The position numbers and the translations under genes are program-made. A stretch of DNA of 64,000 nucleotides from Naegleria gruberi (Eukaryota), in NCBI GenBank assembly GCA_000004985.1, contig GG738920.1; one strand, 5' to 3'. The notes under the pieces were generated by a model. That model was not told where the DNA came from and ran no database searches. It saw only the letters and a list, made by a program, of their open reading frames with translations. This document shows, one piece after another, positions 53,886 to 55,178 of this stretch. Numbering within the stretch: position 1 is the stretch's first letter; each line of letters begins with the position of its first letter.

Positions 53886-54247
53886 TTATTGGATCTTAGC
53901 AGTAGACTTGATCAAATCCAAAACTCTGTTAGAGTAACCCCATTCGTTATCGTACCAAGCAACAACCTTAACAAAGTGTTCATTCAAACAAATTGAAGCC
54001 TTGCTATCATAAGTGGATGAAGCAGAATCATGGACGAAATCGCTAGAAACAACTTCTTCATCAGTGAACTTCAAAATACCCTTGAATCTTTCAGATTCAG
54101 AAGCAGCCTTCATAGCTTCATCAATTTGCTTCTTAGTAGCTGGCTTTTCCAATCTACAAGTCAAATCAACAACGGAAACATCAACAGTTGGAACTCTGAA
54201 AGCCATACCAGTCAATTTACCATTCAATGATGGAATAACCAAACCTT
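53886..54247 (-). pseudogene. 3' fragment of GAPDH (last ~120 codons), truncated at the duplication breakpoint; no start codon
   Basis: Translates as ..[48 protein letters not shown]...[23 protein letters not shown], identical to residues ~215-334 of the intact GAPDH at 59181..60182. Homology stops at 54247. Confidence 0.8.
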
Positions 54248-55178
54248 TTTGTTTGTGAAACTGTTGAAAATTCCTGAAAATTACTTTTCACTTTACAATT
54301 AACTTGAAAATGACTTTGTTGAATAATATCATTTTTTTCATCTTGATCTAATTTTGAATTTTCCTTATTAATAAATTCATCATTTAATTTAGCTTCCACA
54401 ATAGTAACTTGTAATTTTGTAACATATTGTACTAATTTAGAAACTTGAATTGCACCTGTAATTCCAACTATGGAATCAATCCATTCTCTTCTTTCTTGTT
54501 CTGAACTAGCTGCAATTAAATGTTGTGCATATGGTGTTATAATTTTAAATACAAACATTCCACTTTCAACTGATTCAATTTCATCTTTTTCTATTTTTAT
54601 TTATATTTATATTTATATTATATTATATTATTATTTAATTTATAAATATATATTATTATATATTATACATCCATATATAGATAAATAGATATATAAATAA
54701 AAATATATTAATATATATATAAAAAAATAAATAAAAACATACCAATTTTAATATCCTCTGCCAATGAAATGATACCTAATGGTTGATATTTACTATTTTG
54801 AGATTCAAGTTGTGCAGCAGCAGCAATTGCAGCATCTTTATAATAATAAATTGAAGTTTTCTGTAGAACAAACCAACGTTTTTTCCAACCTTTGAATTTA
54901 TATTTAAAAGTTGATTTTGATGATTTTAATGGTTTTTTAGATAAATAACCTTGTTTATATATTTGATTATTAGATGTTGCTGATTTAGAAAGTGTTAATG
55001 TTGATTGAAGTAATCCTGTTGTTGATTGTGAATATTGTTCTAATGATCTATTATTATTATGATTGTTATTATTCATATTGTTGGGTGATGATAGTTGTTT
55101 TGAATGACGCATTTTTTTTTTATTTTTTTGAAGGGTGACACTGATGTGTGAAGGTTCCGAATCATCTTTTATCCTCAT
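54217..55178 (-). CDS. PH-domain protein, 2 exons (AT-microsatellite intron ~54560..54745); last ~10 codons and stop come from the duplication-arm sequence
   Basis: Exon 1 (54708..55178 ORF): [41 protein letters not shown]...[14 protein letters not shown]|GTATGT. Exon 2: ..[33 protein letters not shown].. is the canonical PH C-terminal helix. The terminal ..[11 protein letters not shown] is read antisense/out of frame from GAPDH-derived sequence 54217..54247. Confidence 0.55.
54590..54745. repeat. AT-rich microsatellite-like tract ((TATAT/ATTAT)n) within the PH-gene intron
   Basis: tttatatttatatttatattatattatattattatttaatttataaatatatattattatatattatacatccatatatagataaatagatatataaataaaaatatattaatatatatat. 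Confidence 0.6.

Follow-up and report, generated by a model that had tools for sequence, protein, structure and literature searches.

Probable truncation of a PH-domain gene of Naegleria gruberi at the junction of an inverted duplication carrying the 3' end of a GAPDH gene

The stretch of DNA analysed here (the window) comprises 64,000 nucleotides of contig GG738920.1 of Naegleria gruberi (assembly GCA_000004985.1) and contains a two-exon gene on the minus strand for a PH-domain protein. The spliced product is 100% identical to NAEGRDRAFT_81996 of strain NEG-M (EFC37294.1 / XP_002670038.1 / UniProt D2W138), which is located on a scaffold of 218,836 bp, and neighbouring open reading frames (ORFs) of the window likewise correspond exactly to N. 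gruberi proteins (SOD, nitronate monooxygenase, GAPDH, RdRP and ETF-beta). The locus is mentioned nowhere in the literature that was searched. The PH gene has the following parts.

54743 to 55178, minus strand: exon 1, from the first ATG (ORF and splice model)
54591 to 54742, minus strand: intron of 152 nt, GTATGT...ATAG, 5% GC (splice model)
54217 to 54590, minus strand: exon 2, the last exon, to which the ORF 54217..54558 (minus strand) belongs
54246 to 54590, minus strand: ancestral part of exon 2, encoding the last part of the PH domain, then a linker and the start of a C2-like segment (tblastn, blastn, alignment)
54217 to 54245, minus strand: new C-terminal tail, (R)FGYSIIEW and a TAA stop, read over copied GAPDH codons 215-224 in a frame shifted by one base

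The 152-nt intron was accepted because its removal opens the frame and makes the PH domain complete. The resulting protein of 269 amino acids matches Pfam PH (PF00169) at residues 74-186 (E=2.7e-18) with 66.9 bits against a gathering cut-off of 25.1, and has no Pfam match to C2 (PF00168). Exon 1 matches residues 65-178 of an N. fowleri protein (P0002, described below) by tblastn; the GenBank model of the gene begins at the second ATG (MRHSKQ). The ORF immediately upstream (55240-55938) was considered as a 5' exon of the PH gene and rejected, as the 61-nt gap between the two (55179-55239) contains no GT donor and as this ORF is a separate gene in N. fowleri.

The PH gene lies at one edge of an inverted duplication whose arms align over 4196 positions with 99.09% identity, 16 mismatches and seven gap openings. 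The arms and the segment that they enclose are made up as follows.

50054 to 54245, no strand assigned: left arm, with an intact F-box/DUF4116 gene, nitronate monooxygenase (NMO), Fe/Mn SOD and a GAPDH fragment (arm comparison, Pfam)
54246 to 59822, no strand assigned: single-copy spacer of 5577 nt, with the PH gene, ORF 55240-55938, a nucleotidyltransferase, an aldolase and the 5' two thirds of GAPDH
55240 to 55938, minus strand: ORF in the spacer, upstream neighbour of the PH gene
56078 to 57046, minus strand: nucleotidyltransferase-like gene in the spacer
57208 to 58380, minus strand: class-I aldolase gene in the spacer
59823 to 64000, no strand assigned: right arm, with GAPDH codons 215-333, a SOD copy, an NMO copy and a frameshifted F-box copy (arm comparison)

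Reverse-complementary copies of several genes, at high identity and on one assembled sequence, identify this structure as an inverted segmental duplication, and it is symmetrical in that a flip of the spacer lets either arm complete GAPDH. The right arm leaves the window at 64000, which makes 4.2 kb a minimum arm length. Both copies of SOD, NMO and the F-box gene have separate GenBank accessions on the same scaffold, and the genes at 36.4-37.6, 32.5-34.3, 28.9-30.9, 24.3-26.9 and 18.8-19.6 kb have a single accession each; because SOD, NMO and F-box alone have twin accessions, the left arm ends between 37.6 and 50.05 kb, and the duplication is therefore 4.2-16.6 kb long. The arms have diverged by 0.38%. 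Of the differences between them in NMO and SOD, five are synonymous and one is non-synonymous, and it is on the strength of these differences and of the separate accessions that we regard the arms as distinct, real sequences and not as a ghost of read errors. The right-arm copy of the F-box gene has suffered two frameshifts and a 9-nt deletion, the left copy being intact.

One full-length GAPDH gene spans the boundary between spacer and right arm, and its 3' end recurs in the left arm, where it abuts the PH gene.

59181 to 60182, plus strand: intact GAPDH gene of 333 amino acids (EFC37245.1, glyceraldehyde-3-phosphate dehydrogenase)
53886 to 54245, minus strand: GAPDH 3' fragment, codons 215-333 and stop (Pfam Gp_dh_C, profile positions 64-158, E=2.1e-34)
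53763 to 53885, minus strand: copied GAPDH 3' flank

Codons 1-214 of the intact gene lie in the spacer and run seamlessly into the right arm. The fragment is 100% identical to the corresponding part of the intact gene and starts without an ATG; together with its 3' flank it forms a repeat of 483 nt at 100% identity. No AATAAA lies between the stop of the PH gene and the point where the GAPDH coding copy ends, and the first one downstream of that stop is GAPDH's own, at 53870, 16 nt past the GAPDH stop and inside the perfectly identical segment. From its position, it is likely to be the new 3'-end signal of the PH transcript.

The identity of the arms ends at 54245/54246, inside the PH coding sequence and just after codon 260. 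A first-pass annotation of this DNA had the PH gene cross the left-arm boundary at 54247; the crossing is confirmed, the boundary itself being displaced from that position. The ancestral part of exon 2 runs to ...FSTVSQTK (residue 260) and supplies the first base of codon 261, and the Arg codon at the junction is accordingly a hybrid, with its A from the PH side and its GG from the GAPDH side. The GAPDH copy thus contributes eight full codons, two thirds of the Arg codon and the stop, with which the PH frame closes at 54217-54219. Minus-strand translation of 54204-54245 is identical to intact GAPDH from 59823 onward, and the PH reading of 54217-54258, on the same strand, is one base out of register with it, which bears out the annotation's statement that the last PH residues are read out of frame from GAPDH sequence. 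Its description of them as derived from the antisense of the GAPDH fragment was mistaken: the fragment (53886..54245) occupies the same minus strand as the PH gene, and the tail is not an antisense-derived coding sequence. Nor is this, strictly speaking, a chimeric (fusion) gene, as the donor frame is unused and only nine unrelated residues are added.

The length of the tail requires no special explanation. When a hypothetical junction was placed at every position of the arm, the median distance to the first stop was 10 codons, and it was nine or fewer in 49% of cases; the nine-residue tail is thus of the length expected by chance and represents incidental read-through. No microhomology is visible when the present-day junction is compared with GAPDH (...ACAAAAA/GGTTTGG versus ...GCTGTC/GGTTTGG). 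There are no runs of N near the junction; the only Ns of the window are at 15552, 15561 and 38218-38268, and the junction falls within a gap-free contig that extends from 38269 to the end of the window. Programmed frameshifting or transcriptional slippage at ACAAAAAGG was also considered and rejected as the main explanation, there being no canonical slippery heptamer and a run of five As being too short.

Homologues of the PH gene were sought with exon 2, less its GAPDH part, as the query of an HMMER search that covered 1.84 billion representatives exhaustively. The matches were the locus itself, the N. fowleri protein CAG4712434.1 (P0002; 706 amino acids, E=3e-36, 59% identity) and a more distant homologue, P0003 (798 amino acids, E=3e-10). 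A longer model of the same N. fowleri gene (P0008, FDP41_008159 / XP_044558168.1) comprises 1206 amino acids. Searches with two alignments of the missing C-terminal part recovered only one protein, P0020, encoded on a Naegleria-like JGI metagenome contig of 3.3 kb with 40% GC (L002), in which the continuation of the gene takes the form of two further called genes. The second of these matches the C-terminal part of the 1206-amino-acid N. fowleri model, which is thereby supported. Metagenome scans yielded no closer relatives.

All three relatives run beyond the equivalent of ...FSTVSQTK into a conserved C2-like segment (T-x-x-P-I-W/F-N-E...PRFP...), and N. fowleri and P0003 continue for hundreds of further residues in their own models. 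Past the junction residue N. fowleri reads ...SQSK-TITPIWNETFVLDMPRFP..., and the metagenome contig reads ...PQTK-TMNPIWNETFVL followed by an intron and DLPRFPIEIF...; P0003 reads ...KKYK-TLNPIFNEQFVFDCPRFP..., or ...FQQFSTVKKYK TLNPIFNEQFVFDCPRFPVEF... when aligned with the N. gruberi junction. This is the comparison of orthologues that the first-pass annotation had proposed, and none of the three ends with the tail residues. The similarity of these relatives to the window stops at the junction, within one base of the arm boundary, in protein and in nucleotide sequence alike: tblastn with either N. fowleri model ends at 54247, and the nucleotide identity of the metagenome contig, 80.6% over 54307-54246, ends exactly at 54246 (blastn). 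Residues 339 onward of the N. fowleri protein have no tblastn match anywhere in the 64-kb window. The annotation was therefore right that the C-terminus of the PH protein had been replaced at the duplication junction.

The replaced portion is by far the larger. The N. gruberi gene is orthologous to residues 65-338 of the N. fowleri protein, with 52-59% identity; it keeps the equivalent of residues 1-338 of 1206 (~28%), and the equivalent of residues 339-1206 (~870 residues) is gone at this locus. As relatives continue and homology stops exactly at the junction, we take the gene to have been truncated to ~28% of its ancestral length. The family to which FDP41_008159 belongs has a PH domain, a C2-like segment, a middle block (YxxxEYxFEDxxGFP), an RRYxQEL block and a long C-terminal region, and of this architecture N. 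gruberi retains the PH domain and the beginning of the C2-like segment and nothing more, these being what it has in common with FDP41_008159, P0003 and the metagenome gene. Lost are the rest of the C2-like segment, the conserved blocks YARVEYIFEDMQGFPLSY and RRYKQELDRV, a long coiled coil and an acidic tail. Pfam C2 matches straddle the break point in the orthologues, at residues 310-367 of P0008 (profile positions 16-72) and 144-206 of P0003 (positions 4-64); their scores of 18.9 and 21.0 bits fall below the cut-off of 22, and for this reason the segment is called no more than C2-like. In N. fowleri the PH gene is a single ORF (9941-12118 in L001) with no intron at the site of the 152-nt intron of N. 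gruberi, and its upstream neighbour is the same in both species.

Gene order in N. fowleri was informative as to how the PH gene and GAPDH came together. Contig VFQX01000060.1 carries, in order, the NTP-transferase, an Arf-family gene, the aldolase (minus strand) and GAPDH (plus strand), and some 42 kb away, on the GAPDH strand, the orthologue of ORF 55240-55938 followed by the PH gene. The N. fowleri genes after PH have their N. gruberi orthologues in two places of the window, collinear at 4.9-10.3 kb and inverted at 18.8-20.6 kb. Because N. fowleri has the NTP-transferase-aldolase-GAPDH and ORF-PH blocks ~42 kb apart, each block is taken as ancestral and their adjacency as derived. On this comparison the contact between PH and GAPDH appears to have arisen in the N. 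gruberi lineage by intrachromosomal rearrangement; at least two further inversions are needed to link the two gene orders. The joining itself may have involved an inversion with staggered breaks, an inserted inverted copy or a fold-back, and the missing 3' part of the PH gene could be situated shortly after 64000 or else on a different scaffold or haplotype.

Taking these observations together, we consider it probable that the duplication junction truncated the PH gene, which would then be an ordinary casualty of a break point and not a new gene. In the course of events that we propose, an arm starting at GAPDH codon 215 would have been joined to the PH gene immediately behind its codon 260. 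From the PH promoter, transcription would run on through the GAPDH fragment, and translation would enter this same-strand fragment one base off, to reach the TAA after eight further codons. An mRNA, if made, would most likely end at the GAPDH 3'-end signal and would have as its 3' UTR ~350 nt of GAPDH coding sequence. Its product would consist of the PH domain and linker, ~40% of a C2-like sandwich presumably unable to fold alone, and nine arbitrary residues. The first-pass annotation had seen here the birth of a small chimeric gene; with ~870 residues lost, the C2-like domain cut in two and the tail incidental, truncation is the better description. The surviving 5' 28% of the gene has an open frame, and neither its intron nor the region upstream of it is damaged; with arms that differ by only 0.4%, an intact frame is uninformative on selection. 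Judged from the sequence, the PH gene is most likely a recent, dying remnant that has presumably lost its function.

The database model of this gene tells a different story. XP_002670038.1 / EFC37294.1 / D2W138 is a protein of 347 amino acids with precomputed Pfam PH and Gp_dh_C domains; it comes from this very locus, shares the 152-nt intron of our model and is 100% identical to it over the PH part. It reads ...HFQVNCK up to a second 'intron', which it cuts out to gain 119 GAPDH residues, whereas our model keeps these 31 nt as codons and ends at 54217.

54261 to 54291, minus strand: 31-nt 'intron' of XP_002670038.1, GTGAAA...ACAG, 29% GC, GTGAAAAGTAATTTTCAGGAATTTTCAACAG (database model sequence)

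The case for a true PH-GAPDH fusion protein, with 54291..54261 spliced out and the last 119 GAPDH residues appended, thus comprises the GenBank/UniProt model with its two Pfam domains, the GT...AG ends of the segment and the fact that its removal sets both frames in register, as well as the minimum intron of 30 bp that was picked, after assessment of predicted genes, for RNA-seq mapping in N. fowleri (PMC8296547). We nevertheless consider such a fusion highly unlikely. Removal of the 31 nt deletes codons that are conserved as coding in N. fowleri, the metagenome contig and P0003. Further, the three convincing introns of the window, of 152 nt (PH gene), 98 nt (33280-33377) and 47 nt (3895-3941), all start with GTATGT and have a GC content of 5-19%, against a donor of GTGAAA and 29% GC in a segment of only 31 nt; the average intron of N. 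gruberi is 203 bp long (PMC8296547). With its codons conserved in three relatives and its donor, GC content and length all atypical, we judge this 'intron' to be dubious and probably an artefact of homology-guided gene calling, as a homology-guided caller would invent such a micro-intron to hold a strong GAPDH match in frame. Half a Gp_dh_C domain would, moreover, have no obvious fold on its own. That the locus is alive in some form, whether as a PH-only protein that is expressed from its own promoter, stabilised by the captured GAPDH 3' end and in competition with full-length family members for phosphoinositides, or as a PH-GAPDH fusion made by the 31-nt splice or by slippage on the five As, is in our estimation highly unlikely.

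A more serious alternative to truncation is that the 'arms' are a product of how the assembly represents this region, either through a chimeric join or through a heterozygous simple inversion, broken in GAPDH and in the PH gene, whose haplotypes were threaded together, with an intact PH gene and an intact arrangement of alleles elsewhere. N. gruberi has been reported to be heterozygous (PMC9928731), and the 0.38% divergence of the arms, mostly synonymous within genes, could fit alleles; arm-spacer-arm is what an assembler would produce if the 5.6-kb spacer were inverted on one haplotype, and junction and arms are known from a single Sanger-era assembly. Against this, the junction falls inside the gap-free contig from 38269 to the window end, and the 218,836-bp scaffold has a separate gene annotated for each of the arm copies. 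Protein searches found no N. gruberi protein with the missing 3' part, and no second copy of the PH part turned up in a search with the PH protein, whose sole match was the locus itself; both are weak negatives, the N. fowleri proteins from which the queries for the 3' part came not being returned either. Even a heterozygous inversion would leave the PH/GAPDH junction and the truncated frame real on one haplotype. We regard an assembly or haplotype explanation of the duplication as unlikely. To the idea that the short C-terminus is ancestral and its overlap with the arm boundary a coincidence, for which only the existence of an ORF with a stop can be cited, we attach next to no credence, given that a conserved segment follows directly on the junction residue in three relatives of varying distance and that protein and nucleotide homology both break off no more than one base from the arm boundary.

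Genes cut or made chimeric at the break points of segmental duplications and inversions are of a familiar kind. Inverted duplications flank inversion break points in Drosophila, where they are explained by a staggered-break model, and partial-gene copies are found at the edges of primate segmental duplications. The N. gruberi locus resembles these cases in that a duplication edge falls in coding sequence, in that the 5' part, its promoter retained, is read on into foreign sequence up to the first stop, and in that inverted arms flank a short single-copy segment; it differs from them in that the outer ends of its arms lie beyond view and several mechanisms fit. It reveals no new mechanism and is a new example of a known consequence of break points.

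With the probable truncation, the reference strain NEG-M appears to be without an intact copy, at this locus, of the PH/C2-like/coiled-coil gene that N. fowleri, the metagenome contig and the distant homologue P0003 represent. Were the remnant alive or fused after all, it would be a young chimeric gene just after its birth in a free-living excavate. The combination of PH with a GAPDH C-terminal domain, a probable annotation artefact, has spread to UniProt, to Pfam architectures and to EukProt. An inverted duplication of several genes, its junction sharply defined, is now documented in the N. gruberi assembly, and this junction could mark strain history or aid a haplotype-resolved reassembly.

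Full-length members of the PH/C2-like family carry at the C-terminus a proline-rich stretch, short basic-hydrophobic motifs and then an acidic tail with a terminal tryptophan (endings ...SEDSDW, ...DDSDDSDW and ...SDDEDW). Regions with this C-terminus are as follows:

L001 (N. fowleri), 12317-13786
L002 (Naegleria-like metagenome contig), 1589-3010
P0003 (798-aa distant homologue), C-terminus

The arrangement recalls actin nucleation-promoting factors with their WH2-central-acidic ends; because WH2 gave no Pfam match at E<=1, this likeness is treated as resemblance only.

Intron positions in the PH gene are not the same across N. 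gruberi, its metagenome relative and N. fowleri:

Window 54591-54742, N. gruberi intron, after ...EDIKI
L002 ~382-465, metagenome relative intron, after ...NETFVL

Both sites lie inside a single unbroken ORF in N. fowleri (L001 9941-12118). At the 5' end of the N. gruberi gene, the stop codon of a same-strand ORF lying upstream (55240-55938) comes only 61 nt (window 55179-55239) before the first ATG, and the GenBank model starts at the second ATG (MRHSKQ), 66 nt further in.

The genes that lie 3' of the PH gene in N. fowleri have their N. gruberi orthologues 34-49 kb away, at window 4926-10285 and 18797-20621; one of these blocks is in collinear order with the PH gene, and the following one, which holds ETF-beta and its neighbours, is inverted, implying further rearrangements beyond the duplication. 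An Arf/Ras-family gene (L003 7067-7759) sits between the nucleotidyltransferase and aldolase genes in N. fowleri, and none is present in the matching 160-nt gap in N. gruberi (window 57046-57208).

Within the inverted duplication, the gene copies are placed in the window as follows:

49092-51461 (+), F-box/DUF4116 gene, left-arm copy, 789 aa, intact
62624-64000 (-), F-box/DUF4116 gene, right-arm copy, disrupted
51546-52577 and 61490-62521, nitronate monooxygenase (NMO) gene, two arm copies
52922-53629 and 60438-61145, SOD gene, two arm copies

Compared with the intact left copy, the right-arm F-box/DUF4116 copy, annotated solely as EFC37299.1 (255 aa), has two indels of 1 nt each and lacks 9 nt. 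The gene is disrupted in the right arm only, and thus the intact GAPDH lies on one arm and the intact F-box gene on the other. A short internal repeat of the F-box gene coding for NENDEN/EIRNE (50545-50680 and 63419-63500) is where the arms differ in length by 9 nt, and is also the source of secondary BLAST matches. The NMO copies differ at four synonymous sites and one non-synonymous site (Q250K), and the SOD copies at one synonymous site; such differences are what constrained sequences typically show after real divergence or as allelic variants, and are not typical of sequencing error.

Ambiguous bases in the window are these:

38218-38268, scaffold gap, run of 50 N
15552 and 15561, two isolated N

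The left arm must have its outer end within an interval that includes the 50-N gap.
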